This document shows, piece by piece, positions 5,361 through 62,825 of a stretch of 64,000 bases of DNA. The notes under the pieces are model-generated. The model saw only the letters and a program-made list of their open reading frames with translations, was not told the origin of the DNA and ran no database searches. This DNA comes from Mobula hypostoma (lineage: Eukaryota), in NCBI RefSeq assembly GCF_963921235.1, contig NC_086097.1, positions 19,470,001-19,534,000 on the forward strand, written 5' to 3'. Position 1 is the first letter of the stretch. Every line of letters starts with the position of its first letter. The translations under genes and the position numbers were made by a program.

Positions 5361-6429
5361 TAGAAGTCTATGACATGGGAAAGGCTCTTCAGCCTACAAT
5401 GACAGCATAATGCCAATTTAAACTAAATCCCTTCTGCCTGTCCATGGCCCATATCTCTACATTCCCTGCAAGTTCATCTCACTATCATTCATGCACTTCA
5501 GACCGAGACGAAATGTTGACCGTTTATTCCCCTCCATAGGCACTGCCTGACCTGTGGAGTTCCTCCAGCATTTTCTGCCAGTTGCCCAAGATTTCCAGCA
5601 TCTGTCTATAATGGAGGAAACCTGACTGGCTGAGAAAGCTGAGATGCTAGTGAGCTTCCATGTGTCCATATGGATGGATTAGGAGAAATTATTGGTGATA
5701 TTTTTACAGATCGAGTTTGCGAGTCTGCTGGAGGCTGGAGGCCTGGAAGTCTGTCCTGGATTTGAGGTTCTGCCCACGTGTGTGGGCAGATGGGAGGGAG
5801 GAAAGGAGCTTGTTTTGTTGTGGTTTTGTTGCTTGTTGTGGTCTATTTTGTTGTGCTCTGTGTTCTTCTGCCAAGCATCGAGGGCTTGTGATGTAGGCGC
5901 CTGGGGACTGCCCCCTGCACACCCTTAGGTTGTGTTGGTAAACACAAACAACACATTTCACTGTATGTTTCAACGTACATGTGATAAATAAATCTGAATG
6001 TCTGCCTCAGCAAACAGGGGTACGTGTTCCGCTGGCTAGAGCCAAGGATCAGGTGTTTGGTTTTGCTGACGTTGTGGGAAAGGTTGTTGCCATGGCACCG
6101 TGTCACTAGGCTCTCTATCTCCTTCCTGTACCCTGCCTTGTCATTGTTTGAGGTCTAGCCCACTGGTGTGGGGTCATCTGCAAACTTGTAGATGGAGGTG
6201 CTGCTGAATTGATCCATGCAGAGCATACAATCACAACTGCCTGACTGGTGATGCCATTAGGTATACTAATGACACCAGGCAAATGTGATGGGAGTTCCTC
6301 AATTTCCCGATGGATTGAACTTCACCTAGAAATTAACCTCACTGGTAAAGTCATCTGTATGCGTCAATGGACCCACGTCCAGGACACCCTGCGTCCACTG
6401 CACCATTTTGACATTTCCTTTAGCCTGGT

Positions 6430-6750
6430 CTTACCCTCACTATGGATGTCCAGTCCTTAGACAACTGTATTCCCCTCCTCCAGCCCTCTATCCCTTTCAC
6501 CAATCAACGTTCCAGCTTTTTAATTCACCCCTCCCCCTCCCCTTTCACCTATCACCTGCCACCTTGTACTACTTCCTACCCTCCCCCCACCTTCTTATTC
6601 TGACATCTCCCCTTCCTTTTCAGTCCCAATGAAGGGTCTCGACCCGAAACATTGACTGTTTACTCTTTCCCATAGGTGCTGCCTGGCCTGCTGAGTTCCT
6701 CCAGCATTTTGTGTGCATTACTTTGGATTTCCAGCATCTGCAAACTTTCT
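6430..6750 (+). mobile_element. Penelope-like element 3' end with degenerate hammerhead motif (6621-6658)
   Basis: Polypyrimidine UTR, then cagtc-ccaatga-agggtctcgaccc-gaaac-att-gactg and the family tail gctgagttcctccagca...ccagcatctgca. Confidence 0.8.
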
Positions 6751-8167
6751 TATGTCTGTGACATCCTCAGACGGTGTTGGGTTATTGACACAAATGACAC
6801 ATTTCACCGTAAATGTCAGAACGTTCAGTGCAGAGATAATGACACTGAAGTGGGTCAGCAGTTCACTGACTTCAATGAGATCTGTTGCAGGATTTTAACA
6901 GCAAGCACTAGGCCAACAGGGCCATTAACTAAAAATCTCAAAGTGAGAGTTAACTGCCAACACCACAGCTGGGAGCAATGCCAAAATATTAAACCAATAC
7001 CGTCCCATTACAGAATCTGTCGAAATGCTAGTCCTCTTTCCCGAACAAGTACGAGGGTAAGCAGGAAGTACAAATGTTGCCGTGCTTTTGGTCAAGGCTC
7101 GACAAGACTGAAACAAAAGGAAGTGAGTTAAATACTGCCAGTAATTAGCTGGAATGTGCACACTCCCAAGAGTAATTGTCAAATCCGTTGTGCAGCTCGC
7201 CTGCGCAGGTGTGTAGTCCCCGCTGCAGAGTCCGTGATTGTAACACTACTGCATGGGACAAATAAAGCCCATCTCTCTCCCTGAACACAAACCCTACCCA
7301 GTGTTAATGGGGATAGGTAAAATGAAATTCATTTTTAAAACTGGCTCTCCGTTTCTCTCGTCGTCTGCAGCTGGAAATCTTTATATGATTAATCATGGGC
7401 TGGTCGACTCGAGTTTTGAAACTACTCCTCATTCAATCTACATAGAGCATCAAGCGTGACCTCTGCTGCAGTACAGCCACGAGAGAAGACAGGAGGAAAT
7501 CAACTGGAGATTTGTGTCTTCCACTGAGTATTAATCTGCCAGGTATTCTTCACTACAATCTTGCATTAATTATAGGAAGATACTGTTGCAGGGACTGGAT
7601 TTAACTGATTCAGAGCGCAAGCAGTTCAGTCACCGTTGACACAAGTGATCCCATTGGTGTGTTAATGAGTCAGACTTCTAGGCCTCTCCTGGTGATTTTC
7701 CCAAGCATCATTCAATGCAAACTGCAATGAGAGCAGAACCCTGGAAAGCATGTGCATTAGTGGAGGTCTTCGTCAGCATTAAAGGCATTTAATGCTGCCA
7801 TCTCCTCTAGTCCCATCACACAGCTTCTCACAAGCATCTCCTTGACCAGTAGAAGCAGCAGAGAAGGGGAAGCACACACCTGTTGAGAGGATCATGGAGA
7901 CTTTGTCGGCTGGGGGTGTAAGGGGTGGAAAGGAGTGAAGGAAGGTGTTAAGTGATTGGAGAACAATCAAGGTCAGTCAGCACCAAAATGGATTTTGTCT
8001 TTCTATAGCACATGGAGGATGTGCTAGGCGCTTTACAGCTGATGATGTAGATTTGAAGTATATTGCTCGTTTAATGGAGGAAATGCTGCCAGCACATTCT
8101 ACAGAAGTGATGGAGGCCATCTCGCCTGATTTCAGTTGTTAGCCTGGGACATTAGTAGTGGCAGCGC

Positions 8168-8270
8168 CACACACAAAACGCTGGAGGAACTCTGCAGGTC
8201 AGGCAGCGTCTATGGAAGGGAATAAACAGTTGATGTTTCTGGTTGATATCCTTCATCAAGACATGAAAGG
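8168..8270 (-). mobile_element. Penelope-like terminal repeat, degenerate hammerhead
   Basis: acacaaaacgctggaggaactc...cagttgatgtttc..cttcatcaagac is the reverse complement of the family repeat. Confidence 0.7.
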
Positions 8271-8309
8271 TCAGGCTTGGTACTGTATGTAGGCTGGAGC
8301 AGGAGTGGT

Positions 8310-9680: not shown

Positions 9681-9799
9681 GAGTCCCAGTTAATTCTGAC
9701 TTTGTCAAACTACACCCACAGTAGGCTTGATAACTCTGATTGGACATACTTTGAGATGCCATCATATGACCATGAGTGTCTGGTATCCTGCTGCTGGCT

Positions 9800-11537: not shown

Positions 11538-12588
11538 GCACAGCAATGCAGGTGGATGCTTTCCTGGTGTCATGGATTCTTGATTACCTGACTGGCAGAC
11601 CACAGTACGTGTGCCTGCAACACTGTGTGTCCAACAGAGTGATCAGCAGCACTGGGGCTCCACAGGGGACTGTCTTGTCTCCCTTTCTCTTCACCATTTA
11701 CACCTCGGATTTCAACTACTGCACAGAGTCTTGTCATCTTCAGTAGTTTTCTGATGACTCTGCCATAGGTGGATGCATCAGCAAGGGAGATGAGGCTGAG
11801 CACAGGGCTACCATAGGAAACTTTGTCACATGGTGTGAGCAGAATTATCTGCAGCTTAATGTGAAAAAGACTAAGGAACTGGTTGTAGACCTGAGGAGAG
11901 CTAAGGTACCGGTGACCCCTGTTTCCACCCAGGGGGTCAGTGTGGACATGGTGGAGGATTGCAAATACCTGGGGATACGAATTGACAATAAACTGGACTG
12001 GTCAAAGAACACTGAGGCTGTCTACAAGAAGGGTCAGAGCCTCTATTTCCTGAGGAGCCTGAGGTCCTTTAACATCTGCCGGACGATGCTGAGGATGTTC
12101 TACGAGTCTGTGGTGGCCAGTGCGATCATGTTTGCTGTTGTGTGCTGGGGCAGCAGGCTGAAGGTAGCAGACACCAACAGAATCAACAAACTCATTCGTA
12201 AGGCCAGTGATGTTGTAGGGATGGAACTGGACTCTCTGACGGTGGTGTCTGAAAAGAGGATGCTGTCCAAGTTGCATGCCATCTTGGACAATGTCTCCCA
12301 TCCACTACATAATGTACTGGGTGGGCACAGGAGTACATTCAGCCAGAGACTCATTCCACCGAGATGCAACACAGAGCGTCATAGGAAGTCATTCCTGCCT
12401 GTGGCCATCAAACTTTACAACTCCTCCCTTGGAGGGTCAGACACCCTGAGTCAATAGGCTGGTCCTGGACTTATTTCCTGACATAATTACTATTTAACTA
12501 TTTATGGTTTTATTACTATTTATTATTTATGGTGCAACTGTAACGAAAACCAATTTCCCCCGGGATCAATAAAGTATGACTATGACTG
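11538..12588 (+). mobile_element. Rex1/Babar-like LINE, 5'-truncated and fairly young (RT C-half, 3' UTR, tail)
   Basis: WILDYLTGRPQYV, TGAPQGTVLSPFLF, stop codon before FSDD, KTKELVVDLRR, HPLH..RHRKSFLPVAIKLYN; then AATAAA and a (TATGAC)n tail. Confidence 0.9.
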
Positions 12589-16304: not shown

Positions 16305-16876
16305 GTATTATGTCAGTGAGGCTAAATGCAGGTTGGAAGAGCAACACCTCATGTTCCATCTGAGTAGTCTCCAACCTAATGGCATGAACATCGGTTTCTC
16401 TAACCTCTGATAACCACTTCTCTCTGTTCCCCCCTACACACCATACAGACACACATGCTCTTATTGTCTTTTCCCATTCTGGTAGCCCTCTCACCCCTTA
16501 TCTTCTCCTCCCCCACCTTCATCGCCTGCTCACCCTTCCTCTGGCTCCCCATCTCCTTCCTTTCACTCCGCTGTCCACTTCTATCAGATTCCTCCTTCTT
16601 CAACCCTTTACCTCTTCCACCTATCACCTCCCAGTTCCTCACATCATTTGCCATCCCTCCCCCACACACCTACCTCCCCCTTCACCTGGTGTCACCTATC
16701 ACCTGTATTCCTCCTCCTCCCCCCAACTTCTGCCATTTCTTTTCCAGTCCTGATGAAGAGTCTCGGCCCAAGACATCAACAGTATATTCCCCTCCATAAA
16801 TGCTGCCTGACCTACTGAGGAACTCAATAGGAAGAGCAGCATCGGTTGGAGTAACGGATTTGTCGATGTTTCAGGT
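16305..16876 (+). mobile_element. Penelope-like element 3' end: GIY-YIG C-terminus, UTR, degenerate hammerhead (16745-16782), short inverted stub
   Basis: EAKCRLEEQHLMFHLSSLQPNGMNIGFSNL* resembles the Penelope-like ORF terminus; followed by cagtcctgatgaagagtctcggccc. Confidence 0.85.
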
Positions 16877-17442: not shown

Positions 17443-18140
17443 ATTAGATTAGATTAGATTAGATTCAACTCTATTGTCATTGTGCCGAGCACAGATACAA
17501 AGCCAATGAAATGCATTTAGCACCTGACCAGAAATGCAAAGGATAGTGTTATTTACAAAATAACTGCGAATAAAAAGTAAGTGCTACAGCACACTAATAT
17601 AAAAGTACTGAGACAGTACAATACGGATGCAATACTGCTTAGCGCTGTGATATGAGGTTCAGCAGTGTCACAGCCTCAGGGAAGAAGCTCTTCCTGTGCC
17701 TGCTAGTGTGGGAGCGGAGGCTCCTGTAGTGCCTACCGGATGGGAGGACAGTAAAAAGTCCATGGTTAGGGTGAGATGCATCCTTGATAATGCTTTTCAC
17801 CCTGCCCAGGCAGCGTTTATGGTAGATACTCTCAATGGTGGGCAATTGGGTGCCGATAATCCGCTGGGCAGTTTTCACCACACGCTGGAGTGCTTTGCGG
17901 TCTGATACGGGACAATTGCCATACCACACTGAGATGCAGTTGGTGAGTACGCTCTCAATGGTACAGCGGTAAAAGTCCGTCAGTATCCTGGGACAGAGGT
18001 GAGCTTTCTTCAAGCTCCGCAGGAAATAAAGGCGCTGTTATGCCTTTTTGATCAGGATGAAGGAGTTCAGGGACCAGATGAGATCCTCGGAAATGTGGAC
18101 ACCAAGGAATTTGAAGCTTGATACACGCTCCACCACAGTT
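17443..18140 (-). mobile_element. Rex1/L2-like LINE 3' fragment (young) with (TCTAA)n tail
   Basis: ORF 17639-18013 FYRCTIESVLTNCISVWYG..IIKDASHPNHGLFTVLPSGRHYRSL; (ttaga)n at 17443-17466. Confidence 0.9.
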
Positions 18141-18859: not shown

Positions 18860-20460
18860 AGCATATTGATATTAGGGGAGAGGAGGTGTTGGAGTTGTTA
18901 AAATACATTAGGATGGATAAGTCCCCGGGGCCTGATGGAATATTCCTCAGGCTGCTCCATGAGGCGAGTGAAGAGATTGCTGAACCTCTGGTTAAGATCT
19001 TTATGTCCTTCTTGTCCACGGGAATGGTACCGGAGGATTGGAGGGAGGCGAATGTTGTCCCCTTGTTCAAAAAAGGTAGTAGGGATAGTCCGGGTAATTA
19101 TAGACCAGTGAGCCTTACGTCTGTGGTGGGAAAGCTGTTGGAACAGATTCTTAGAGATAGGATCTATGGGCATTTAGAGAATCATGGTCTGATCAGGGAC
19201 AGTCAGCATGGCTTTGTGAAGGGCAGATCGTGTCTAACAAGCCTGATAGAGTTCTTTGAGGAGGTGACCAGGCATATAGATGAGGGTAGTGCAGTGGATG
19301 TGATCTACATGGATTTTAGTAAGGCATTTGACAAGGTTCCACACGGTGGGCTTACTCAGAAAGTCAGAATCCACCTGTCCAGGGAAGTTTGGCCAGGTGG
19401 ATGCAGAAATGGCTTGACTGCAGAAAGCAGAGGCTCATGGTGGAGGGAGTACATTCAGATTGGAGGGTTGTGACTAGTGGTGTCCCACAAGGATCTGTTC
19501 TGGGACCTCTACTTTTCGTGATTTTTATTAACGACCTGGATGTGGGGGTAGAAGGATGGGTTGGCAAGTTTGCAGATGACACAATGGTTGGTGGTGTTGT
19601 AGATAGTGTAGAGGATTGTCAAAGTTTGCAGAGAGACATTGATAGGATGCAGAAGTGGGCTGAGAAGTGGCAGATGGAGTTCAACCCGGAGAAGTGTGAG
19701 GTGGTACACTTTGGAAGGACAAACTCCAAGGTAGAGTACAAAGAAAATGGCAGGATACTTGGAAGTGTAGAGGAGCAGAGGGATCTGGGGGTACATGTCC
19801 ATAGATCCCTGAAAGTTGCCTCACAGGTAGATAGGGTAGTTAAGAAAGCTTATGGGGTGTTAGTTTTCATAAGTCAAGGGATAGAGTTTAAGAGCCGCGG
19901 AGTAATGGTGCAGCTTATAAAACTCTGGTTAGGCCACACTTGGAGCATTGTGTCCAGTTCTGGTCGCCTCACTATAGGAAGGATGTGGAAGCATTGGAAA
20001 GGGTACAGAGGAGATTTACCAGGATGCTGCCTGGTTTGGAGAGTATGCATTACGATCAGAGATTAAGGGAGCTAGGGCTTTACTCTTTGGAGAGAAGGAG
20101 GATGAGAGGAGACATGATAGAGGTGTACAAGATAATAAGAGGAATAGATAGAGTGGATAGCCAGCGCCTCTTCCCCAGGGCACCATTGCTCAATACAAGA
20201 GGACGTGGCTTTAAGGTAAAGTGTGGGAAGTTCAAGGGGGATATTAGAGGAAGGTTTTTTAATCAGAGAGTGGTTGGTGCGTGGAATGCACTGCCTGAGT
20301 CAGTGGTGGAGGCAGATACAATAGTGAAATTTAAGAGACTACTAGACAGGTATCTGGAGGAATTTAAGGTGGGGGGTTATATGGGAGGCAGGGTCTAAGA
20401 GTCGGCACAATTTTGTGGGCCGAAGGGCCTGTACTGTGCTGTACTGTTCTATGTTCTATA
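18860..20460 (+). mobile_element. CR1 LINE, 5'-truncated, near-complete RT with two frameshifts
   Basis: [72 protein letters not shown]1 3' end gggccgaagggcctgtactgtgctgtactgttctatgttcta. Confidence 0.95.
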
Positions 20461-23557: not shown

Positions 23558-24304
23558 AATCAAATCAAAATGAATTGGGCTCTTATCTCATTGCTTCCTT
23601 TCTATTTAATTGACTGTTGTACTTTTTTACAGTACTGTTAACAACAGTGAGAGTTTACTTTGTTTTTACCTCTGGAAATCCTTGGAGAGATTTCTCTGTC
23701 TCCCCTTCACAATCCACAATCACACTTGGACTTTTCCTGCCGCCTCACCCCCCACCCCCAGGCAGTGAGATTAGCTGCTTCAAAGTGAGATGGAAAGTAA
23801 TAGTGGGAATATCACAAAGAGAAAGATGAAAGAAAAAGTAATCAAGAGAGTTGGAAATTTTATCTTTGTAACATTTTTTAAAATTCTCTTAAATTTGCAA
23901 TTCTAAAAATATTTTAGCAAATGCCTTCTGGACATTCGAGCATTGATAGAGGTTCCTCCTCATTTTCAAGTTTAATGAAAAAAATATTACAGAGCAGTAG
24001 AAACCCATCTGATAGTTTACATCGTTACTAAGGGAAATTTTGTGACCAAGTCCCACACCAACGATTAATAGTAAAAATACAAGCCACTTTAGAGTCCTGG
24101 GTTCTGGGGAATGCTTCTTAACTGAAGGGACCTTGAGAAGGAACCTTGCCCAATCTCAGAAGGATTTGCAAAGTTGTAACATGGGAAACCCAGTGTCACA
24201 GAGTGAGACTCCACTATTTGTAATGAGATAATTGTTGTTCATGTTCACACAAACCAGTCTCCCTTCCATTGACTCTCTCTGCACCTCACACTGCCTCGAT
24301 AGAA

Positions 24305-24862
24305 CAGCCCATTCCCATTCCAACATGTTGGTCCACAGCTTCCTCTACTGCCATGATGAGGCCACCCCCAGGCTGGAGGAACAACACCTCATATTCGTCT
24401 GGGTAACCTCCCGCCTGGTAGCATTAACCTCAATGCCTCTAATTTCCAGTAATTTCTCCCACTGACCCTTCTCTCTGTTTCTATTCCTTACTCCAGCTTC
24501 ATTCTTATCCCTTCTCTTCTACACACCTGCCTATCACCTCCCTCTGGTGCCCCTCTTCCTTCCCTTTCTTCCATGGTCCACTCTCCTCTCCTTCCAGTTC
24601 TTCTTCTTCAGCCCTTTGCCTTTTCCACCTATCACCTCCCAGCATCTTACTTCATCCCCCTTCACCCGCTTACCCACCGTCATCTCACTTATCACTTGTC
24701 AGCATACAGTACTTCTCCTCCACCAGCTTCATATGCTGGCTTCTGCTCCCTTTCTTTTTAGTCCTGATGAAGGGTCTTGGCCCAAAGGGTCAACTGTTTA
24801 TTCCTCTCCATGGATGCTGCCCGGCCAGCTGAGTTCCTTCAGCTTGGTGTGTGTGTTGCTTT
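24305..24862 (+). mobile_element. Penelope-like element 3' end (GIY-YIG C-terminus, UTR, degenerate hammerhead 24760-24796)
   Basis: HSHSNMLVHSFLYCHDEATPRLEEQHLIF; agtcctgatgaagggtcttggcccaaagggtcaactg. Confidence 0.85.
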
Positions 24863-26051: not shown

Positions 26052-26109
26052 CCATGGCAAGGTAGACTGGGAGACTAAGAGTTCATCTTTATCATATCAG
26101 AGTTCTACT

Positions 26110-26765
26110 CAAGAGCTGCAACAACAATCTTGCACTCAATACCAGTAAGACCAAGGAATTGATAGTGGACTTCAGGAAGGAGAAGTTGAGGGAACACATA
26201 CCAGACCTCATTAAGGGATCAGCAATGGAAAGGATGAGCAGTTTCACGTTCCTGGGTGCCAGCATCTCTGAAGACCTATCCTGGGCCCACCACACCAGTG
26301 CAATTACAAAGAAGGCAGATCAGTATCTCTATTTCATTAGGAGTTTAAGGAGATTTGGTATGTCACCAAAGACTTCAGCAAATTTCTACAGATATAGCAT
26401 GTAGAACATTCTAATTGGTTGCATCACTATCCAATCAGAAGAAGTTGCAGAAGGTTATAAATTCAGCCGACTCCAATATGGGCACTGGCTTTAAAAGATG
26501 ATGCCTCAAAAAGGCAACACCTGTCATTAAGGACCCCCACCACCCAAGATGTACACTCTTCTAATTACCACCATCTAAAGCCACACACTCAATGTTTTAG
26601 GAACATATTTTGCCCTCTGCCATCAGATTTCTAAACAGACAATGACCTCATTATTTTTGGTCTCTTTTTGCACTACTTGCTAAATTCCTTTAAATATATG
26701 TTTCTAATTATAATTCATGGTATATTTTATGTCTTTTATATGTATATACTTGATTCTGATTCTTA
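26110..26765 (+). mobile_element. Rex1/L2-like LINE 3' fragment
   Basis: KTKELIVDFRK, FTFLGASISEDLSW, LYFIRSLRRFGMS. Confidence 0.8.
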
Positions 26766-29385: not shown

Positions 29386-30089
29386 TCCAATGATTTTTAA
29401 TTATGTTTCGTATTTTTATAACTATACTGATTTATCTTTACAATCGATGGAAAGCACCTTGAGCCTGCCTCTTAATATGTGAAAGGTGCTATGTAAGTAA
29501 AGTTATTATTATAAGTAAACGCCAGTCAAGAATCGTTGGCTCTGTAAGGAGTTGTACTAAATGTTCCACCATCTCGCTATGTTTCAGGTTGAGACCTTGC
29601 ATCAGGACCTATCAACTGTTCCTCTGCCTCCAGAGGTGCAGCCTGACCCTCTGAAATTCTCCAGCAGCAACGTGGGGAAGAGTGACAATGAGAACTGATT
29701 TCCATAAATGGATCGTCAGTACACGTCAAAACCTCAGCATGTTAATGGGTTTCATGGCAACTGGCCCAGACAAATGGGATTTCTTTTTCTTTCAAGCCAT
29801 TTCTTTTGATTTCATCTTCTGGATAAAGAGCTCTGGTGCCCAGTCCAGGAACGCAGCTTTCAGATCGCTGATTGAAACACAGAGAGAAGTACAATTGCAG
29901 AACAAATTGCAATTACCATCTACTACTTTCCCGGAGCTGAGCGAAATTTGCTGCAGCTTTTCGAAATTGTGGCCAAGAATTTAGAAAGGTACCAGCTGTA
30001 AACGAAACCAAAAAGCCACCCATTCCGTTTGGGCTCATCATGGGCTGAATCTTTTAAAGGGACCTCGCCCAACCTTGCCGGAGGCTGTA

Positions 30090-30615
30090 TATCAGAATCA
30101 GGTTTAATATCACTGGCATACAGCATGAAATTTGTTGTTTTGTGGCAGCAATACATTTGTTGTTTTGTGCAATACATTTTTAAATAACAACTATAACTTA
30201 CAATAGGAAATGTATTTAAAAATTAAATTAAATGAGTAGTGCACAAAGAAAGCAGAAATAATGAGGTGGTGTCCATTGTCCATTCAGTAATCTGATGACA
30301 GAGGGGGAAGAAACTGTTCCCAAAACGTTGTGTGTGTGTGTGTGCCTTCAGGCTCCTGTACCTCCACTTTGATGAGGATACTAAGAAGAGAGCATGTCCG
30401 GGGTGATCAGGGTCCTTAATGATGGATGCCACCTTTTTGAAGCATCGCCTTTTGAAGATGCCCTGGATGCTGGGGAGGCTATTGCCCATGATGAAGCTGG
30501 CTGAGTTTGCAACTCTCTGCAGATTTTTCCAATCCTGTGCAGTGGTCCTTCCATACCAGATGGTGATGAAACCAGTTGGAATGCTCTCCACGGTGAATCT
30601 GTAGAAATTTGCTCG
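30090..30615 (-). mobile_element. Rex1/L2-like LINE 3' fragment
   Basis: ORF 30223-30591 ITIWYG..LQRVANSA..IIKDPDHPGHALF; (tctga)n tail. Confidence 0.85.
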
Positions 30616-31965: not shown

Positions 31966-32619
31966 TATACACTTTGGTATTTAATGTTTCCATCCCAGGA
32001 AAAATAATTTTTTCTCTGTTAGAACATAGAACAAGAGAGGGCTATGTGGGAGGGAAGAGTCAGATTGATCTTAGAATAGGTTTAAAGGGTCAGCACAATA
32101 TTGGGGTTGAAAGACCTGTACTGTACTATTCTATGTTCTAACATATTGTATTGTGCAAAAGTCTTTGGGAAAAGAGGTGGGGGTGTGACACTGCTGATCA
32201 GAGATAGTTTCACGGCTGCAGAATAGGAAGAAATCATGGAGGGATTGTCTACTGAGTCTCTATGGGTGGAAGTTAGAAACAGGAAGGGGTCAATAATTGA
32301 GTGTTTTTTTATAGACTACCCAATAGTAACAGGGACACCAAGGAGCAGATAGGGAGACAGATTCTGGAAAGATGCAATAATAACAGAGTTGTCATGGTGG
32401 GAGATTTTAATTTCCCCAATATTGATTGGCATCTCCCTAGAGCAAGCGGCATAGATGGGGTGGAATTTGTTAGGTGTGTTCAGGAAGATTTCCTGACACA
32501 ATATGTAGATAAGGCTGTACTTGATCTGGTATTGAGAAATGAACCTGGTCAGATGTCAGGTCTCTCAGTGGGAGAGCATTTTGAAGATAATGATCACAAT
32601 CCTATCTCCTTTACCATAG

Positions 32620-32827
32620 ACAACAGAAATTCTGCAGATGCTGGAAATTCAAGCAACATACATCAAAGTTGCTGGTGAACGCAGCAGGCCAAGCAGCATA
32701 GGCGCAGTCGACGTTTCAGGCCGAGACCCTTCGTCCTGACGAAGGGTCTCGGCCTGAAACGTCGACTGCGCCTCTTCCTATAGATGCTGCTTGGCCTGCT
32801 GCGTTCACCAGCAACTTTGATGTTTGT
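32620..32827. mobile_element. Fold-back Penelope-like mini-element with 13-bp TSD
   Basis: TSD TCCTTTACCATAG at 32607-32619 and 32828-32840; near-perfect inverted arms centred at 32735-32737. Confidence 0.9.
32733..32766 (+). ncRNA. Minimal type I hammerhead ribozyme motif (intact core)
   Basis: gtc-CTGACGA-agggtctcggcct-GAAAC-GTC-gac. Confidence 0.8.
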
Positions 32828-32856
32828 TCCTTTACCATAGCATTGGAGAGGGATAG

Positions 32857-33758: not shown

Positions 33759-36700
33759 ATAGGAACTGACAAGTTAGGAAAATATTTAATTGGAATAAGG
33801 GGAAATATGAAGCTATCAGGCAGGAACTTGGAAGCATAAATTGGGAATAGATGTTCTCAGGGAAATGTACAACAGAAATGTGGCAAATGTTCAGGGGATA
33901 TTTACATGGCATTCTACATAGGTACGTTCCAATGAGGCAGGGAAAGGATGGTAGGGTACAGGAACCGTGGTGTACAAAGGCTGTTGAAAATCTAGTCAAG
34001 AAGAAAAGAAAAGCTTACAAAAGGTACAAAAAACTAGGTAATGATAGAGATCTAGAAGATTATAAGGCTAGCTGGAAGGAGCTTAAGAAAGAAATTAGGA
34101 CAGCCAGATGAGGCCATGAGAAGGCCTTGGCGAGCAGGATAAAGGAAATCCCCAAGGCATTCTACAAGTATGTGAAGAGCAAGTGAGTGAATAGGACCAT
34201 TCAAGTGTGACAGTGGAAAAGTGTGTTTGGAACCAGAGGAAATAGCAGAGGTACTTAATGAATACTTTTCTTCAGTATTCACTATGGAAAAGGACCTTCC
34301 AATTTTAGGGATGACTTACAGCGGACTGAAAAGCTTGAACAATAGACGTTAAGAAAGCATCAAGTTGGATAAGTCACCGGGACCGGACGAGATATACCCT
34401 AGGCTACTGTGGGAGGCGAGGGAGGAGATTGCTGAGCCTCTGGCAATGATCTTTGAATCATCAATGGGGACAGGGAGGTTTCGGAGGATTAGAGGGTTGA
34501 AGATGTTGTTCCCTTATTCAAGAAAGGGAGTAGAGATAGCCCAGGAAATTATAGACCAGTGAGTCTTACTTCATTGGTTGGCAAGTTGATGGAGAAAATC
34601 CTAAGAGGGTGGATTTATGAACATTTGGAGAGGCATAATATGATTAGGAATAGTCAACATGGCTTTGTTAAAGGCAGGTCGTGCCTCACGAGCCTGATTG
34701 AATTTTTTGAGGATGTGACTGAACACATTGATGAAGGTAGAGCAGTAGATGTAGTGTATATGGATTTCAGCAAGGCATTTGATAATGTACCCATGCAAGC
34801 CTTTTTGAGAAAGTAAGGAGGCATGGGATCCAAAGGGACCTTGCTTTGTGGATCCAGAACTGGCTTGCCCACAGAAGGGAAAGAGTGGTTGTAGATGGAT
34901 TATATTCTGCATGGAGGTTCGTGACCAGTGGTGTGCCTCAGGGATCTGTTCTGGAACCCCTTCTCTTTGTGATTTTTATAAATAAACTGAATGAGGAAAT
35001 GGTGGGATAGGTTAATAAATTTGCTGATGACACAAAGGTTGGGGGTGTTGTGGATGGTGTAGAGGTCTGTCAGAGGTTACAGCGGGACATTGATAGGATG
35101 CAAAGCTGGGCTGAGAAGTGGCAGATGGAGTTCAACCCAGATAACTGTGAGGTGGTTCATTTGGTAGGTCAAATATGATGGCAGAATATAGTATTAATGG
35201 TAAGACTCTTGACAGAGTGGAGGATCAGAGGGATCTTGGGGTCCGAGTCCATAGGTCACTCAAAGCTGCTGCGTAGGTTGACTGTGTGGTTAAGAAGGCA
35301 TATGGTGCATTGGCCTTCATCAACTGTGGGATTGAGTTCAAGGGCCAAGAGGTAATGTTACAGCTATAGAGGACCCTGATCAGACCCCAGTTGGAGTACT
35401 GTGCTCAGTTCTGGTCACCTCACTACAGGAAGGATATGGAAACTATATAAAGGTGTAGAGGAGATTTAAAAGGATGTTGCCTGGATTGAGAAGTATGCCT
35501 TACAAGAATAGGTTGAGTGAACTTGGCATTTTTTCTTTGGAGCGATGGAGGATGAGAGGTGACCTGATAGAGGTGTATAAGATGATGAGAGACATTGATC
35601 ACGTGGACAGTCAGAGGCTTTTTCCCAGGGCTGAAATGGCTAACACAAGAGGGCACAGTTTTAAGTTGCTTGAAAGTAGGTACAGGGTGGGTGTCAGGGG
35701 TAAAATTTTTTGTGCAGAGAGTGGTGAGTGCGTGAAATGGACTGCTGGCAACGGTGGTGGAGGTGGATACGATAGGGTCTTTTAAGAGGTTCCTGGATAG
35801 ATACATGGAGCTTAGAAAAATAGAGGGCTATGGGTAACGCAAGGTAAGGACATGTTTGGCACAGCATTGTGGGCCGAAGGGCTTGTATTGTGTTGTAGGT
35901 TTTCTCTGTTTCTATATATATAGCTTTAAGATTTTTATACAGTACTGTACTTGTCAACATGGGGTGGAGAGCGAGTTTGTAAATCTGGCAGGAGCAACAG
36001 GTGTTGAGAATGGTGAAGGTGGAATGCCACTGGAGGGGTTTGGGACAGGCAGCAGAGAAGGAGTTCCAGGGACAAGGGTGACGTGAGTGAACACTACAGC
36101 CCACTTTGGCCCAATGTTGTCTGAACCAACTAACTAATAATCAAATGTCTAACTAAACTAGTCCCTTCTGCATATACAATGACCATATCCCTCCATTTCC
36201 TGTACATTTTTATTCCTATCTGAAAGCCTCTTAAATCCTTTATCATATTTGCCTCCACCACCACCCCTGGTAGTGCATTCCAGACACCCACCACACTTGC
36301 CCTGCACACCTCCTTTGAACTTTCCCCATCCCACCTTTTGTAGTTGTAACTGAACAAAACTCTGCAACTGGCTCTCCTCATCCTGCCCAACAGGGTCTCC
36401 TTATCTCTTTGCAGAGCAGTTGGTCACAAGACCAGGGCTTTGTCTGCACTGGTGATGGGGCAGCTCGCCTTAAAACCTGACGCATAGCCGTTCACAATAA
36501 CCACAATGGAAGTCTTTGCGTCAGGGTACAGGGGTGGATGTGGTGACCTTCCGCTGTTGCGACAAGGAAGCTTCGAGCTAATTACTGATGCGTGCTCACC
36601 TTTGCTCTAAGTTCCAGGTGGACCACTCAGCCACAGCTCATCCACAGAAATGGTCCCTACACTGAATCATCTGTGCAGAATAGAATTGATGGCAGTGAGT

Positions 36701-41865: not shown

Positions 41866-42250
41866 ATCCTGATGAAAGGTCTCAGCCCAAAACGGTGACT
41901 ATTTATTTCCCCCTGTAGATGCTACCTGACCGACTGTTCCACCAGCATTTTGGGTGTGTTGCTCTAGATTTCCAGCATCTGCAAACTTCTTTGGCTTCTA
42001 ATCTAGTGTACTGAAAAAGGAAAGCTCCTTGAGAAGGATGAATCACTTGTGGATAAATAAGGAAGTTAAAAATAGAATCAAATGGAAAGAAAATGCACAG
42101 AATAGAAGCACAAGACACTCTGCAGATGCTGGAAATCCAGAGCAACTCACAAAATCCTGGAGGAACTCAGCAGGTCAGGCAGCATCTATGGAAATGAGTA
42201 AACTGGGGATGTTTCAGGCTGAGACTCTTCACTAGGACTGGAAAAGAAGA
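41866..42250. mobile_element. Two Penelope-like terminal repeats, tail-to-tail (plus 41866-41990, minus 42110-42250), degenerate hammerheads
   Basis: tcctgatgaaaggtctcagcccaaaacg and gtttcaggctgagactcttcactaggactg. Confidence 0.75.
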
Positions 42251-43531: not shown

Positions 43532-43695
43532 GACACAAGAGATTCTGCAGATGCTCGAAATCCAGAATAACACACGAAAAACTGAGCAGAACAGACAGCA
43601 TCTATGGAAAAAAGTAAGCAGTCGACGTCTCAGGTCGAGTCTTGATGCAGGGTCTTGGCCCAAAATGTCGACTGTTTATTCCTCTCCATAGATGT
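43532..43695. mobile_element. Older fold-back Penelope-like mini-element
   Basis: catctatgga..cagtcgacgtctcagg | tcttgatgcagggtcttggcccaaaatgtcgactg..ccatagatg (inverted arms). Confidence 0.7.
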
Positions 43696-43892: not shown

Positions 43893-44045
43893 AGACAACA
43901 CACATCAAAGTTGCTGGTGAACGCAGCTGGCCAGGCAGCATCTCTAGGAAGAGGTACAGTCGACGTTTCAGGACGAGACCCTTAGTCCAACACAACTTTG
44001 ATGTGTGTTGCTTGAATTTCCAGCATCTGCAGAATTCCTCTTGTT
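43893..44045. mobile_element. Fold-back Penelope-like mini-element with 13-bp TSD
   Basis: TSD TGCATAACAGCTT at 43880-43892 and 44046-44058; arms caacacacatcaaagttg / caactttgatgtgtgttg. Inserted in a Rex1/L2-like LINE (about 43440-44540). Confidence 0.88.
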
Positions 44046-48001: not shown

Positions 48002-48239
48002 CACATCAAAGTTACTGGTGAACGCAGCAGTCCAGGCAGCATCTACTGGAAGAGGTACAGTCAACGTTTCTGATTAATCTCTTACTATCTCTTCTTTCAG
48101 TTAGTCCTGACGAAGGGTCTCGGCCTGAAACGTCGACTGTAGCTCTTCCTAGAGATGCTGCCTGGCCTGCTGCGTTCACCAGCAACTCTTATGTGTGTTG
48201 CTTGAAATTCCAGCATCTGCAGATTTCCTCCTGTTTGCG
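48002..48239 (+). mobile_element. Penelope-like mini-element with inverted 5' arm and 13-bp TSD
   Basis: TSD AGAAAATGAATCT at 47989-48001 and 48240-48252; inverted arm 48002-48070. Confidence 0.9.
48103..48138 (+). ncRNA. Minimal type I hammerhead ribozyme motif (intact core)
   Basis: agtc-CTGACGA-agggtctcggcct-GAAAC-GTC-gact. Confidence 0.85.
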
Positions 48240-48507: not shown

Positions 48508-49135
48508 AAACACAAGATTCTGCAAAGCTCGGTTAACACACCCAAAATGCTGGAGGAACCCAGCAGGTCAGGGAGCGTCCCTGAATAAACAGTCAGTGTT
48601 TCAAGCCGTGCCCAGAACTGGAAAGGAAGGATGCAGAAGCCAGAATAAGAAGGTGGGGAGAGGAGAAGAAGTAAAAGAAGGTGAGGGGAAAGACAGGCTG
48701 ATGGGTAACAGGGGTTGAAGTGATAATTTAGGAGGTGATAGTCCCCATTCAGTCTCCACTCTCACCCCTTCTCTTGTCCTCACCTGCCTTTCACCTCCCT
48801 CTGGTTCTCCTCCTCTTTCTCTTTCTCCCATGGTCCACTCTCCCCTCCTATCAGATTTCTTCTTCTTCAGCCCTTTATCTTTTCCACAAATCACCACCCA
48901 GCTTCTTACTTCATCCTGCTCTCCCCCACCCACCAAACTTCCCCCTCATCTGGACTCATCTATCACCCACCAGCTTGTAGTCCTTCACCCTCACCTCACC
49001 TCCTTATTCTGGCCTGTTCCCCCTTCCTTTCCGGTCCTAATGAAGCATCTCAGCCCAAAACGTCGACTGTTTTATTCTTCTCCATAGACACCGCCTGACG
49101 TGCTGAGTTCCTCCATCATTGTGTGTGTGAGTGTT
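48508..49135. mobile_element. Older inverted pair of Penelope-like ends
   Basis: Minus arm 48508-48720; plus arm 48740-49135 with ggtcctaatgaagcatctcagcccaaaacgtcgactg. Confidence 0.75.
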
Positions 49136-49687: not shown

Positions 49688-49980
49688 TACACAAGAGATT
49701 CAGCAGGTGTTGGAAATCCAGAGTAACACACTCAAAATGTTGGTGGAACTCAGCAGGTCAGGCAGCATCTATGAAAAGGAATAGGGAGTCAACGTTTTGG
49801 GCCAAGACCCTTCATCTGGACTGCTCTAGGTAACACACACAAAATGCTGGAGGAACTCAGCAGGCCAGGCACCATCTATGGAAAAAAGTACAGTCGACAT
49901 TTTGGCCTGAAACCCTTCAGCAGGACTGAAGAAATAAAGCTGAGGAGTAGATTTGAAAGGTTGGGGTGGGGGGGGGAAGG
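49688..49980 (-). mobile_element. Tandem direct pair of Penelope-like terminal repeats with two degenerate hammerheads
   Basis: agtcaacgttttgggccaagacccttcatctggactg (49787-49823) and cagtcgacattttggcctgaaacccttcagcaggactg (49891-49928). Confidence 0.8.
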
Positions 49981-52865: not shown

Positions 52866-52879
52866 TGGAAAGATGGCAC

Positions 52880-57769: not shown

Positions 57770-58535
57770 CATCATTAATCAGGGTATGAGTGCAGGTCTT
57801 GGGCCGTTATGTTGCAGTTGTGTAAGTCATTGGTGAGACAGTGTTTGGAGTACTGTGTACGGTTTTGGTCACACTGTTACAGGAAAGAAGTGGTTAAATT
57901 AGAAAGGGTGCAGAAGAGATTTACAAGGATGTTTCCAGGATCAGAGTTATAGGGAGAGATTGGCCAAGCCAGATCTGACGAAGGGTCTTGGCTTGAAACG
58001 TCGACTGTACTTCTTCCTAGAGATGCTGCCTAGCCTGCTGCGCTCACCAGCAACTTTGATGTATGTTGCCAGATCTTTATGTGCTGTGTTTTCCTCTTGG
58101 TCCCAGAGGAATGTTGTTTCATTTTGTTGTATACATGTGTACGGCTGAATGACAATAAACTTTAACTTGAATTTGAACTTTATTCCTTGGAATGTAGGAG
58201 AATGAGGGGGCGACCTTAAGGAAAAGTTTAAAATTATGAGGGGCATAGTTAAGGTGGAAGTAGCAGTCTTTTCCCCAGGGTGGGGGAATCCATAACAAGG
58301 GGGCATTGACTTACTTTTTCAAACAGAAGATGGTGAGGACATGGAATGAGAAGCCAGATGAAGTGGTTGAGATAGATACAACAATATCATTTAAGCACTT
58401 GAATATGTTCAGGGAGGGGCCTGAAGGGATGTATGCCATTTGCACAACATTGGGATAATCTATGTGGATGTGGTCAGCAGGACTAGTGGGGCCGAAGGGC
58501 CTGTGTCCATGCTACATTGTTCCATGACTCTAATT
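57770..58535 (+). mobile_element. Decayed CR1 3' part with nested insertions
   Basis: ttggagtactgtgtacggttttggtcac, agggtgcagaagagatttacaaggatg, gggccgaagggcctgt. Confidence 0.75.
57975..58067 (+). mobile_element. About 91-bp Penelope-like insertion starting at the hammerhead core, 9-bp TSD
   Basis: GCCAGATCT at 57968-57976 and 58068-58076; CTGACGA-agggtcttggctt-GAAAC-GTC-gactg. Confidence 0.8.
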
Positions 58536-59029: not shown

Positions 59030-59235
59030 TACTGATGCCAGCATCTGGAGCAACAGCCAAACTGCTGGAGGAACGCAGCAGGTCAGGCAGCGTCTGTGGG
59101 AGGCAGGGGGATGGTTATCATCTCGGGTTGAGACCCTGCATCACGGTCTTGACCGAAAAAGAGGACCATCCCTCCTGCCTCCACAGATACAATCTGACCC
59201 GTTGAGTTCTTCCTGCAGTTTGGTTGTTGCTTCAT
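59030..59235. mobile_element. Older fold-back Penelope-like mini-element (different subfamily)
   Basis: gcaacagccaaactgctggaggaac..gaggcagggggatggt / accatccctcctgcctc..gcagtttggttgttgc. Confidence 0.75.
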
Positions 59236-59334
59236 TAGTTCAAAGTTTTAAGTGAATTTATCAAAATAGGTATTGTATATGTTCACAACACGCTGGAGGA
59301 ACTCAGCAGGTCGGGCAGCATCCGTGGAAAAGAT

Positions 59335-59372
59335 CGATCGACGTTTCGGGCTGGAACCCTTCGTCAGGACTG
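59335..59372 (-). ncRNA. Minimal type I hammerhead ribozyme motif (intact core)
   Basis: Reverse complement cagtc-CTGACGA-agggttccagccc-GAAAC-GTC-gatcg. Confidence 0.8.
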
Positions 59373-59887
59373 TAGAGGGAAGGGCCAGAGGCCCTATAAA
59401 GAAGGTGGGGGGAGGGTGGGAAGGAGAAGGCTGGTAGGTTCCAGGTGAAAAACCAGTAGGGGGAAAGATAAAGGGGTGGGGGAGGGGAAGCAGGGAGGGG
59501 ATAGGCAGGAAAGGTGAAGAAGGAATAGGGGAAAGCACAATGCGTAGTAGAAGGAAGCGGAACCATGAGGGAGGTAGTAAGCAGCTAGGGTAGTCTCCAG
59601 TCCCTTGGTATGAACATTGAATTCTCCAACTTCCAGTAATTCCCTCCCCCTATCCCAGTTTCACTCTGCCCCCTCCCCCAGCTGCCTATCACTTCCCTCA
59701 TGGTTCCACCTCTTACCCATTGTGCTTTCCCCTGTTCCTTCTTCACCTTTCCTGCCTACCCCCTCCCTGCTTCCCCTCCCCCACCCCTTGATCTCTCCCC
59801 TTACTGGTTTTTCACCTGGAACCTACCAGCCTTCTCCTTCCCTCCCTCCCCCCACCTTCTTTATAGGGCCTCTCCCCCCTCCCTCTT

Positions 59888-59925
59888 CAGTCCTGACGAA
59901 GGGTTCCAGCCCGAAACGTTGACCG
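59888..59925 (+). ncRNA. Minimal type I hammerhead ribozyme motif (intact core, GUU site)
   Basis: cagtc-CTGACGA-agggttccagccc-GAAAC-GTT-gaccg. Confidence 0.8.
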
Positions 59926-60264
59926 TTCGTTTCCACGGATGCTGCCCCACTTGCTGAGTTCCTCCAGCATGTTGTGAGTGTTGCTTTGACCCCAGCATCT
60001 GCAGAGTATTTTGTGTTTACTGTATATGTTACCATATACTACCCTGAGATTCATTTTCATGCAGGCATTCTCAGTCGAATCAAAGAAACTCAATGAAATC
60101 AGTGGAAAACTACACACAAAGACTGACAAAGAGCCAATGTGCAAGAGAAGACAGACTAACTCAATCAATCAATCAATCAATTGATAATATTGAGAATATG
60201 GATTGAAGCTGAGTCCATAGGTTGTGGATTCAATTCTGTTTTCAGTGTTCAGTTCAGTGTTAAT

Positions 60265-60800
60265 TATCAGAATCAGGCTTATTAATAATGACAAATCTGA
60301 AATTTGTTCTTTTGCAGCAGCAGTAGAGTGCAATACATTAAGAAAATGCTCTAAGTTACAAAAGTAAATAAATAAATAAATAAATAAATGGTGCGAAAGC
60401 AGAGTAAGATAGCGAGGAAGCATTAGTGGGTCGTGGACATTCAGAAACCTGTTGCTGCAGGGGAAGAAGCTGTTTTCAAGTGATGAATGTTGGTCTTCAG
60501 GCTCCCGAACCTCCTCTCTGATGGTAGTATTGCGAGGCGGGTGTGTATCGGATGGTGAGGGGCCTTCGTGCTGGATGCTGCCATTTTGAGGCAACACCCT
60601 TTGAAGATGTGGGGAGCATAGTGCCCATGGATCTGGCTGAGTTTACAACCCTCTGCAGCCTTTTCCGACGCTGTGCAGTGGCCTCTCCTCCCCCATACCA
60701 GAGGGTCTTGCATGCAGTTAGAATGCTCTGCATGGTAAATCTATAGAAATTTGCAAGTGTCTTTAGTAACATACCAAATCTCCTCAAATTATGACATTGA
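60265..60800 (-). mobile_element. Rex1/L2-like LINE 3' fragment
   Basis: LRRFGMLLKTLANFYRFTMQSILTAC..RLQRVVNSA. Confidence 0.8.
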
Positions 60801-61319
60801 ATGGAATACGAGATTCCTGGACGTAGTGGGGAGTGACCTTCCCCTCTGTGAGAGAAGGCCGAGATCACATCTCTCTGGTTCCCCACCTCCTTCTCTTTAT
60901 TCCACAGTCTTCTGTCCTCCCAGATTTCTTCTTGTTCATCCCCTTTACCTTTTGCATCAATTCCCTCCCAGCTTCTCACATCACCCCCCCTCTCCCACCC
61001 ACGCACTTTTCCCCTCAACTGATTCTCACCTATCACCTGCCCGCTTGTATTCCTTCCCCTCTCCCATCCTTCCTTTCCAGTCTTCCCCAGCTACCAGGCT
61101 GATCCTCATGCAGTTCACCGCATGTTGTGGGAAAATGGACTGTATGGGACGGATCGCAGTGGAGCGTGAGTCAGCGACCCCCTTTGATGAACCCACAGAC
61201 TGCAAACCACAACAGGCTGCGCCTCAAGAAGACAGCTTCCATCATTAAGGACCCTCACGGGTCAGGACGTTCCCTCTTCACATTGCTTCCCGTGAGAAGT
61301 TACACGCCCTTCTCATCAA

Positions 61320-61632
61320 TGGGTGGGACGGTTAGAGCACTCACCTTACAGCCCCTGCGATCACGGATGGGGGTTCAATTCCTGACACTGCCTGTAAGGA
61401 GTTTGTACGTTCTCCACGTAGCCACGTGGATTTCCTCCAGGTGCTCCAATTTCCTCCCACATTCCAGAAACATAAGCTTAGTGTCAGTGTGTTGTGGGCA
61501 AGTTATATTGGTGCCAGAAGCCTGACAACACTTGCCAGCTGCCTAGCATAATCTTTACTGATTTGATTTAATGCGAACAACGCAGTTCACTGTATGTTTC
61601 AATGTCCAAGTGACACATAGAGCTAATCTTAT
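61320..61632 (+). mobile_element. V-domain SINE
   Basis: gggttcaattcc B-box; gtttgtacgttctccacgt..tttcctccaggtgctccaatttcctcccacattcca. Confidence 0.75.
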
Positions 61633-62346
61633 TACTGTCTGGGAGGAAATAGCAATACTGAGAACCACTCTCAACATTATAGCTTCTTTCCCTATACTGT
61701 CAGATTTCTCAATGGTCCATGAACCCATCAACAATACCTCACTATCCTCTTTTACACTAGGTATTTATTTATTGTAACATTATCACTTTTTGTTTTCAAG
61801 TAGACTGCTGACACAAAACAAGAAAAATCACAATGTCAGTGATGATAAACCCGATTCTGATTCAAGAGATGGGGCTAAGGTACACTGGCAATAATAGAAA
61901 CATAAGGTGGTCCTGTGGTTCTCCAGTACCTGTGGAGAATTCATCACTTTGCCACCAAAGATGTTCTTCAATGTATAACGCAGGAATCAGGGTGGCTAGG
62001 AGGATTCAGCACTGTCTCCAAAGAGCAAGGCAACAACATCCAAATGGCCCAGTTTTTGTTGGACAAATTAGTGTTTTTACTGGTTCAATTGACTGCCAAT
62101 CAACAGAAACCGAACCAACAGCCAAACCTCTTCGACCAGCACAGTAGGTAACTAAGAAAGGTGGTGAATGGACTTCATTTTGGTTTTTGACAAGGTCGCA
62201 CATGGTAGACTGCTCCAGAAGGTGAAGGTACAAGCGACCTAAAGCATTCTGGCAAATTGGATCCAAAGTGGGCTTCATGATAGGAGTAGAGCATAGAAGT
62301 AGTCATGGTATTGGTACTGGTTTACAATTGTCACATGTTAATCATA

Positions 62347-62825
62347 AACACAAGAAAATATGCAGATGCTGAAAATCTAAAGTAACACACACAAAATGCT
62401 GCAGGAACTCAGCAGGTCAGGTAGTGTCCATGGAAATTATTCAGCTATAGAAAAGAATAATCAGTTGACATTTCAATCTGAGACCCTTCTTCAGAACTGG
62501 AAAGGAAGCGGGTAGATACCAGAGTAAAAAGTTTGGGGGGAAGGGGAGGAGGATAGCTGAAAGGTGGTAGGTGAAGTCAGGTGGGTAGGGAAGGTAAGGG
62601 GCTGGAGAGGAAGGAATCTGATAGGAAACGAGTGGACCATTGGAGAAAGGGAAGGAGGAGGGGATCCAGGAGGAGGTGATAGGCAGAAGAGAAGAGGTCA
62701 GAGTGGGGAAAAGGAGAAGAGGGGAGGAAGAGGATTTTTTTTTCTCTTTTTGCGGAAGGAGAAATTGATATCCACGCCATTAGGTTGGAGGCTACCCAGA
62801 TGGAATATAAGATTTTGCTTATATT
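62347..62825 (-). mobile_element. Penelope-like element 3' end with degenerate hammerhead (62462-62500)
   Basis: Reverse complement encodes QNLIFHLGSLQPNGVDINF; purine-rich UTR on the plus strand; cagttgacatttcaatctgagacccttcttcagaactg. Confidence 0.8.

Follow-up and report, generated by a model that had tools for sequence, protein, structure and literature searches.

A short repeat of the Mobula hypostoma genome was analysed in a stretch of 64,000 nucleotides (contig NC_086097.1, positions 19,470,001 to 19,534,000; the window). The repeat was very probably the minimal type I hammerhead ribozyme (min-HHR) of a Penelope-like retrotransposon (PLE), located about 300 nt past the stop codon of the element. 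It was an element of a known kind, notable only for its scale, its youth and a possible connection of the motif with the ends of reverse transcription. An earlier note, made from the letters of the window alone, had proposed a hammerhead family of this type.

The motif and its hammerhead fold

Motif copies were located by local alignment of a 42-nt unit (window 48098-48139) on both strands, with a score of at least 34 and three shuffles as control. The window gave 20 matches and each shuffle gave none. The matches were at 6622+, 8227-, 16746+, 24758+, 29581-, 32705-, 32730+, 41867+, 42208-, 43619-, 43638+, 43957-, 48098+, 49034+, 49787-, 49891-, 57975+, 59338-, 59889+ and 62462-. They were split into 10 plus and 10 minus, showing no strand bias. 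In addition, blastn with the query 48085-48215 gave 22 high-scoring segment pairs in the window. The 20 places listed by the earlier note were all copies of this one repeat. Eighteen passed the motif alignment, the other two (5499 and 59105) being decayed or internally deleted, and two copies lay beyond that list, 32705(-) and 43638(+).

The pattern CTGANGA-N8-20-GAAAC was matched six times in the window, compared to 0.72 expected. Five matches were intact cores of the repeat (32736+, 48107+, 57975+, 59343- and 59893+). All five cores that had been read as intact before (32733, 48103, 57975, 59335 on the minus strand and 59888) were thereby recovered. The sixth match, at 30292, was unrelated to the hammerhead repeat. 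The spacer between the two boxes was 13 nt, and a pattern with a fixed 14-nt spacer gave no match in the window. The core was kept in 5 of about 20 window copies. The remaining copies, about 15 by the motif alignment, were decayed, and most had lost a box via CpG-type transitions, e.g. from GAAACG to AAAACG or GAAACA. All window copies were 3' ends of 5'-truncated insertions, and their ages differed. Four followed a GIY-YIG C-terminus, as previously proposed; it was recovered by tblastn in three cases and by motif in one, about 260-440 nt before the motif copy. Head-to-head pairs were found at 32705/32730, 43619/43638, 48002/48098 and 59338/59889, and one head-to-tail pair at 49708-49927.

The RNA of the motif was 5'-UAGUC / CUGACGA / A / GGGU-CUCG-GCCU / GAAA / CGU / C / GACUG-3'. 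Helix I consisted of 5 bp (UAGUC/GACUG) and was open, giving a type I topology. Helix II consisted of 4 bp (GGGU/GCCU) with the 4-nt loop CUCG. Both helices were present in the minimum-energy fold of the monomer. In all sequence examined there were 97 descriptor matches, and TTAGTC...GACTG[C/T] with five pairs occurred in 57 of them. The unpaired nucleotide between A9 and G10.1 was A in 95 of the 97 and in all 61 sampled young copies. Helix III was absent. A15.1-C15.2-G16.2-U16.1 formed the palindrome ACGU, which was directly followed by C17 (GAAACGUC). Position 10.1 was always G. Position 11.1 was U in 53 and C in 8 of 61 main-subfamily copies, and 10.1-11.1 was G-C in the second subfamily and in most old window copies. 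The consensus of the earlier note, with ggg(N6)ccc directly after CUGANGA, called for a correction. Helix II was better described as GGGU/GCCY enclosing a loop of 4 nt, preceded by one additional A that stays unpaired behind A9.

In the PLE min-HHRs described in PMC4209133, helix I has 4-5 bp, the nucleotide between 9 and 10.1 is conserved and 15.2-16.2 is palindromic, and the motifs are expected to work as dimers. They are reported there from Xena, Poseidon and Neptune of fish, from coelacanth and from Xenopus (Cervera & De la Pena 2014). The core boxes, helices, bulge and palindromic ACGU of the present motif fit this descriptor, which supported the identification made before. As described in that paper, the known motifs are likewise located in both pseudo-long terminal repeats (pseudo-LTRs), with a 5-bp helix I, no helix III loop and a palindromic 15.2-16.2. 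Most of them are also dispersed single copies of truncated elements, and pairs on opposite strands lie 100-700 bp from each other. The present family had a low sequence heterogeneity, as in the D. virilis case that PMC4209133 ties to an ongoing invasion. In contrast to the min-HHRs of that paper, its helix II had only 4 bp, and G10.1 paired with U in the main subfamily.

The carrier element and its copy number

A Penelope reverse transcriptase (RT) was not found in the window, where tblastn with the open reading frame (ORF) of the family returned C-terminal ends only. A Pfam search of the 139 window ORFs of at least 88 aa gave no GIY-YIG and only RT, endonuclease and ALKBH8_N domains of the long interspersed nuclear element (LINE) type. 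This route failed on the PLE parts of the window because they were too short and decayed.

The carrier was recovered elsewhere in the genome. When the RT part was used as query, the genome gave 60 scored matches, each with an identity of 97-100%, of which 16 fell in stop-free 1043-aa frames. At locus L019 the 1043-aa frame spanned 1051-4179, and the hammerheads on either side of it, at 966 and 4482, were 3516 nt apart. Loci L012, L016 and L017 resembled it, with motifs about 3515 nt apart flanking the ORF. Positions 400-1060 of L019 repeated 3914-4576 with 99.1% identity. This 663-nt direct repeat was a pseudo-LTR formed by a partial tandem, and positions 1-392 were an adjacent inverted copy. 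Within the L019 frame, RVT_1 was matched at residues 534-683 (E 0.0023) and GIY-YIG at 946-1020 (E 0.0011), both just under the Pfam cut-offs. The nearest named proteins were uncharacterised ones of bamboo shark with 72% identity, and homologues of the ORF carried PF00078 and in some cases PF01541. These results supported the Penelope-like carrier suggested earlier, since the motif was located in both pseudo-LTRs of an element with RT and GIY-YIG. In the genome copies the GIY-YIG-containing frame stopped about 297 nt upstream of the motif, and the distance from the motif to the 3' end of the element was about 95-130 nt. A linker CKRNKCYTC (CX4CX2C, of the CX2-5CxxC type) was spotted by eye in the translations. 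PMC8557442 ascribes a CX2-5CxxC linker to Neptune and Nematis, and by this linker motif the clade may be Neptune.

According to PMC8557442, canonical EN+ PLE insertions show a pseudo-LTR from a partial tandem, an inverted 5'-truncated neighbour and a tail of 30-40 bp. The present family showed all of these signatures, i.e. the partial-tandem pseudo-LTR, the adjacent inverted 5'-truncated copy and a tail at one end. The element Poseidon PAc of Anolis carolinensis was alike in being a PLE with RT, GIY-YIG and a pseudo-LTR hammerhead (PMC11167929). However, the PAc ORF is described as starting inside the hammerhead, whereas the present motif was about 300 nt past the stop and about 165 nt before the first Met of the next ORF. 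Protein-assisted cleavage has been demonstrated for PAc.

One further locus, L009 (G000:C1:517500-525500), had an unusual arrangement. The N-terminus and the RT, in a 745-aa frame, were opposite in strand to the GIY-YIG end of the same copy, and the two parts met at a 36-nt inverted repeat, 3949-3984 / 5947-5982. At 5725-5922, a 99-nt segment was perfectly duplicated in tandem. The arrangement arose by an internal inversion or was one more product of fold-back.

The abundance of the family was determined in 3.48 Gb of genome, and the reversed-pattern control of each count was 0. The 33-mer hammerhead, allowing at most 2 mismatches, had 101,216 copies, approximately 1 per 34 kb. Copies that fitted the full descriptor (helix I with 4 bp, the two boxes, the bulge, helix II, ACGU and H17) numbered 59,239. 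The exact 20-mer located 36 nt downstream of C3 occurred 116,330 times, and 68,188 copies spanned -20 to +86. The second subfamily accounted for 4,393 copies. The very large family that the earlier note had expected was thus borne out by the 101,216 near-exact and 59,239 descriptor-perfect copies. The PLE family was young, as seen from the 97-100% identity of the RT matches, and enormous.

In PMC4209133, about 4,000 min-HHR copies in coelacanth and about 9,000 in Xenopus are termed remarkable, and the copy number of the present family was 10-25 times these numbers. The vertebrate maximum given for retrozymes in a 2026 preprint (10.64898/2026.07.22.740005) is 14,255. A literature search returned no report of such PLE or hammerhead numbers in sharks or cartilaginous fishes, which is no proof of their being unpublished. 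Of the ribozyme-motif families recorded so far, it may be the largest.

Sequence of the element was also present in other sequencing runs. When L019:3700-4700 was compared with X1, X5, X9 and X19, four of 24 runs that were all contigs of uncertain kind, pieces at least 90% identical numbered 13,464, 8,926, 161 and 2,046, respectively. The U/C variant at 11.1 made up 14-38% of the depth in these contigs. Since the four runs have four organism codes, the family or its close relatives were not limited to one sample.

Catalysis, conservation and the ends of copies

A mechanism can be proposed from the literature. Two motifs in one transcript or in an RNA pair would pair through their ACGU palindromes, giving the helix III of a double hammerhead. 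The cut would fall after GUC (GUU in one copy), i.e. after C17, and would probably be aided by the protein of the element. Cleavage would release PLE RNA from read-through or tandem transcripts. Single PLE motifs are described as inactive and dimers as weakly active in vitro (PMC4209133), and cleavage in the Anolis PLE needed the protein of the element (PMC11167929). No activity is expected of single dispersed copies in the present family. Catalytic activity in the Mobula hypostoma genome is plausible, its chances being about evenly balanced. The suggestion that intact copies cut host pre-mRNA was unsupported, given that the core was kept in so few window copies and that PMC4209133 reports single motifs as inactive and dimers as low in activity.

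Several results weighed against a catalytic hammerhead. The usually conserved pair G10.1-C11.1 was G-U in the most abundant subfamily; PMC4209133 gives this pair as a recurrent min-HHR trait outside the descriptor of that paper. The minimum-energy fold of the monomer (-11.6 kcal/mol) contained an inactive pairing of the core GACG (G5-G8) with CGUC. Nearest-neighbour folding gave -12.7 for the double hammerhead compared to -31.5 for the dimer minimum, a result that was not decisive, as such folding takes no account of tertiary contacts and protein. Among the Rfam families, whether hammerheads or not, none matched any copy at the gathering threshold or at E<=10 on the 71-nt slice. Among 61 sampled young copies, private substitutions were as common in the motif (17 in 30 sites, 0.93%) as in the flank (18 in 32 sites, 0.92%), with rates at non-CpG, non-polymorphic sites summed from the substitution table. 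Pair changes in the descriptor matches were limited to U/C opposite G, and none was compensatory on both sides. The predicted cleavage site G1.1 was the start of no more than 1 of 60 sampled copies, and therefore no footprint of cleaved RNA as template was seen. Finally, in the one PLE described as tested biochemically, ribozyme mutants left in vitro insertion unaffected (PMC11167929).

Two of these results, the lack of a covariance-model match and a core no more conserved than its flanks among young copies, had been listed by the earlier note as refuting a hammerhead. Both were found, and neither was considered diagnostic. The Rfam hammerhead families are Hammerhead_1, Hammerhead_3, HH9, HH10 and Hammerhead_II, and they have the catalytic boxes in common with this motif. 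Their models gave no match on the whole window at E<=10, nor on the 71 nt around 48107. The models probably require a closed helix III, which would explain their silence on a form in which helix III is absent. A descriptor search was the suitable substitute. The discovery of PLE min-HHRs relied on RNAmotif descriptors and not on covariance models (PMC4209133). For annotation, this meant that the whole helix-III-less class escapes Rfam-based scans.

The missing Rfam match and the shortness of the boxes could also be read as a chance resemblance to a hammerhead core within an ordinary repeat. This is scarcely credible, since all published features of PLE min-HHRs were in the right order and in the right place in a PLE pseudo-LTR, the motif was a conserved island of the untranslated region (UTR) between subfamilies, and the reversed-pattern controls gave 0.

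As to conservation, the core positions outside CpG had 5 changes in 10 sites in the 61 young copies. The young-copy comparison cannot test function because transposon copies decay neutrally after insertion. Differences dating from the source elements were more informative. High-frequency polymorphic sites numbered 1 in the 39-nt motif (U/C at 11.1, pairing preserved) compared to 4 in the 37-nt flank, counts too small for significance. That only wobble-to-Watson-Crick changes were seen was due to all lineages in the genome sharing the same helices. A comparison between the two subfamilies (L019 and L083) gave identities of 78% for the ORF end, 44% for the 3' UTR and 84% (32/38) for the motif. 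The motif differences were confined to loop 2 and position 11.1.

A second block conserved between the subfamilies was located about 15 nt 3' of the motif, GATGCTGCC.G.CCTGCTG.GTTC (L019 4515-4600 and the equivalent in the second subfamily). The 3' CAGCATCTGCAG was partly complementary to this block. RNAalifold gave no conserved structure downstream of the motif (z-scores +0.3 and -1.0). The block may be a region of RT recognition or initiation.

The ends of copies were read at 60 places, the first in the genome to carry the downstream 20-mer; the sample was unbiased with respect to the motif. The 3' ends were bimodal, with 31 at +65 to +102, mostly at +90 to +99, and 29 at +122 to +140. The two classes were about 36 nt apart. 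In inverted pairs, the extra 36 nt or so was on one arm only, and it corresponded to the PLE 'tail' published in PMC8557442 and PMC11167929. The latter reports two adjacent RT start sites that give rise to the 'tail' of PAc, which resembles the two 3'-end classes of the present family. It further reports cutting and extension of the two target strands, in agreement with the head-to-head copies observed here.

The 5' limits were placed relative to C3. In 22 of the 60 copies, the sequence continued more than 320 nt upstream into the PLE 3' UTR and ORF end. Six limits were at -301 to -128 and 32 at -48 to +23, with 14 of these 32 at -8 to +6. Stubs of at most 190 nt, with hammerhead and tail only, made up 32 of the 60. 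Among 19 neighbour pairs at most 4 kb apart, counted by eye in the first 79 places of the 20-mer, 15 were head-to-head, 1 was convergent and 3 were on the same strand. About one third of the copies lay in head-to-head palindromes. An exact 24-nt head-to-head junction within the motif (GACCCTTCGTCCTGACGAAGGGTC) was present at 471 genome places on many contigs, including window 32725-32748. They may stem from separate events at a single preferred nucleotide, or a single palindrome may have been copied.

These ends raise the question of a role of the motif other than cleavage. The hammerhead-like sequence could be kept as an RT recognition or turn-around structure, used in template switching or fold-back, with the boxes as inherited baggage. 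The clustering of 5' ends at the motif argues for such a role, with only six further upstream to -301, as does the fact that many of these ends were head-to-head junctions, one of them exact at 24 nt and found 471 times. It is also consistent with the favoured inactive hairpin, with the Anolis ribozyme mutants that had no effect on in vitro insertion (PMC11167929) and with the good proliferation of hammerhead-less PLE clades described in PMC8557442. However, the boxes, the bulged nucleotide and ACGU were exactly kept between subfamilies whose UTRs were unalignable, and a mere hairpin would not need them. Related PLE motifs are also reported to cleave as dimers or with protein (PMC4209133; PMC11167929). 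Furthermore, the pile-up may partly reflect ordinary early termination, as the truncation rate 3' of the motif, derived from 20-mer counts, was confounded by mutation of the 20-mer and poorly bounded. We regard a role without cleavage as unlikely.

It is possible but improbable that the ribozyme region was more than a passenger and that Penelope reverse transcription preferentially stopped or turned around there. Such a point might arise if PLE RNA starts nearby from a pseudo-LTR promoter, if the folded motif or its protein complex blocks the enzyme, or if the self-complementary cDNA folds back and primes itself. A preferred stop or turn-around would explain the stubs of at most 190 nt, the head-to-head palindromes and the minisatellites of bare hammerheads such as the five perfect 40-nt units given below. 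If true, it would give the min-HHR, whose role has been called a mystery in the literature, a measurable effect in vivo, and the Mobula hypostoma genome would be a place to test the effect of the motif on reverse transcription.

Short copies might also be an independent non-autonomous element, similar to a retrozyme or a short interspersed nuclear element, that spreads via small self-cleaved circular RNAs. A few tandem arrays pointed in this direction, with periods of about 106, about 61 and 40 nt and, in the whole genome, 93 direct pairs of motifs at a distance of 93-123 nt, as did the head-to-tail pair in the window (49708-49927) and the derivation of animal retrozymes from PLE pseudo-LTRs reported in 10.64898/2026.07.22.740005. 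However, a further unit followed 0 of the 60 sampled copies. The 5' ends were ragged with no single boundary, 22 of 60 copies extended into the PLE 3' UTR and ORF end, and the sequence was identical to the 3' end of the PLE itself. Compared to more than 100,000 copies, 93 tandem pairs were negligible, and an independent element is very unlikely. Animal non-LTR retrozymes are alike in their type I hammerheads with a weak helix III that needs dimers (PMC7229834, PMC7761336) and in their probable origin in PLE pseudo-LTRs (10.64898/2026.07.22.740005). They are described as tandem arrays giving circular RNAs, whereas the present copies were dispersed truncated PLE ends in which such arrays were rare.

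Among the arrays, locus L142 (G000:C190:364900-365450) had at 163-366 five 100% identical tandem units of 40 nt that consisted of the hammerhead only, a loop of 2-4 nt closing helix I. The array was flanked by an inverted arm from about 30 nt after C3 on one side and by normal downstream sequence on the other. Further micro-arrays had a period of about 61 nt (C5:27282264, C63:13592830) or about 106 nt (C1:150399572).

The hammerhead of a PLE remained the preferred reading of the repeat. PLE hammerheads have been known since 2014, and their in vivo activity and role are described as unknown in PMC7761336. The present family is young, and many of its frames are open. Its sequence-perfect motifs number in the tens of thousands and occur singly, as inverted or tandem copies and in bare arrays. 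The genome is therefore convenient material for mapping RNA ends with 5'-OH and cyclic phosphate and for testing the cleavage of host transcripts by dispersed min-HHRs.

Features of the window

The copies and the remnants of the element in the window are collected in the table below.

Table. Copies of the hammerhead repeat and remnants of the Penelope-like ORF in the window.
Feature	Positions	Strand	Evidence
Decayed repeat copy, CUGANGA box and 5' half of helix II deleted	5496..5570	+	printed sequence
Old copy, motif 6622-6658, core broken (CCAATGA)	6622..6736	+	blastn, motif alignment
Old copy, motif 8227-8262, C3 to T	8187..8262	-	blastn, motif alignment
GIY-YIG C-terminus remnant of Penelope-like ORF	16306..16407	+	tblastn 68% over 34 aa, E 9.5e-9; motif
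Old copy, CTGATGA box present, GAAA to AAGA	16746..16817	+	blastn, motif alignment
GIY-YIG C-terminus remnant	24295..24449	+	tblastn E 5.6e-10
Old copy, motif 24758-24796, without GAAA box	24752..24861	+	blastn, motif alignment
Motif fragment, A9 to C	29581..29608	-	motif alignment
Inverted arm of head-to-head pair, motif cut at junction (AGGACGA)	32639..32743	-	blastn, motif alignment
Young 5'-truncated copy, exact 33-mer hammerhead 32736-32768	32730..32832	+	pattern match
Old motif copy, G12 to A	41867..41900	+	motif alignment
Old copy, motif 42208-42239 (CTAGTGA)	42127..42239	-	blastn, motif alignment
Head-to-head pair, truncated arm	43585..43639	-	blastn, motif alignment
Head-to-head pair, partner arm, motif decayed	43638..43675	+	blastn, motif alignment
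Copy, 93% identity, GAAACGTC retained, 5' box broken	43896..43997	-	blastn, motif alignment
33-nt match to 3'-terminal segment of element (query 99-131), adjoins copy 43896-43997	43993..44025	+	blastn
Inverted arm, truncation within motif	48002..48070	-	blastn
Young copy with helix I, exact 33-mer hammerhead 48107-48139, full 3' end and tail	48098..48238	+	pattern match, folding
Decayed copy of segment 3' of motif	48535..48608	-	blastn 72.5% identity
Old copy (CTAATGA)	49034..49110	+	blastn, motif alignment
Two short head-to-tail copies (49832-49927, 49708-49822), each from 4 nt before C3, both cores broken	49708..49927	-	blastn, motif alignment
Copy with truncation exactly at C3 and both core boxes intact, without helix I 5' strand, helix II weakened	57975..58069	+	pattern match
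Decayed copy (59105 of the earlier note)	59063..59140	-	blastn, printed sequence
Second-subfamily copy, helix II GGGTTCCAGCCC, intact core	59299..59371	-	pattern, blastn, motif alignment
GIY-YIG C-terminus remnant (..LGMNIEFSNFQ*)	59607..59640	+	motif
Second-subfamily copy, intact core, GUU cleavage triplet	59889..59986	+	pattern, motif alignment
Old copy, CTGAAGA and GAAA boxes kept, helix II and palindrome damaged	62462..62498	-	motif alignment
GIY-YIG C-terminus remnant	62758..62850	-	tblastn E 2.2e-5

The left arm 32639..32743(-) and the copy 32730..32832(+) formed a perfect hairpin at 32701-32772. This hairpin of about 30 bp scored 52 bits on both strands with Rfam mir-3926, whose gathering score is 82. 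This sub-threshold match was the only notable one with Rfam, and it was the palindrome of two head-to-head motif copies. As a speculation, head-to-head palindromes, which are common in the family, might feed small-RNA pathways.

LINE-type fragments unrelated to the Penelope copies were located at 11747-12454, 17642-18037(-), 18862-20063, 26066-26401, 32301-32675 and 34493-34813. The Pfam domains in such fragments of the window were RVT_1, Exo_endo_phos_2 and a C-terminal motif of the ALKBH8_N type. In addition, window 1-4500 had a G+C content of 52% compared to about 44% elsewhere, and its many long overlapping ORFs on both strands had no Pfam match. A CpG island or simple sequence may account for this stretch.

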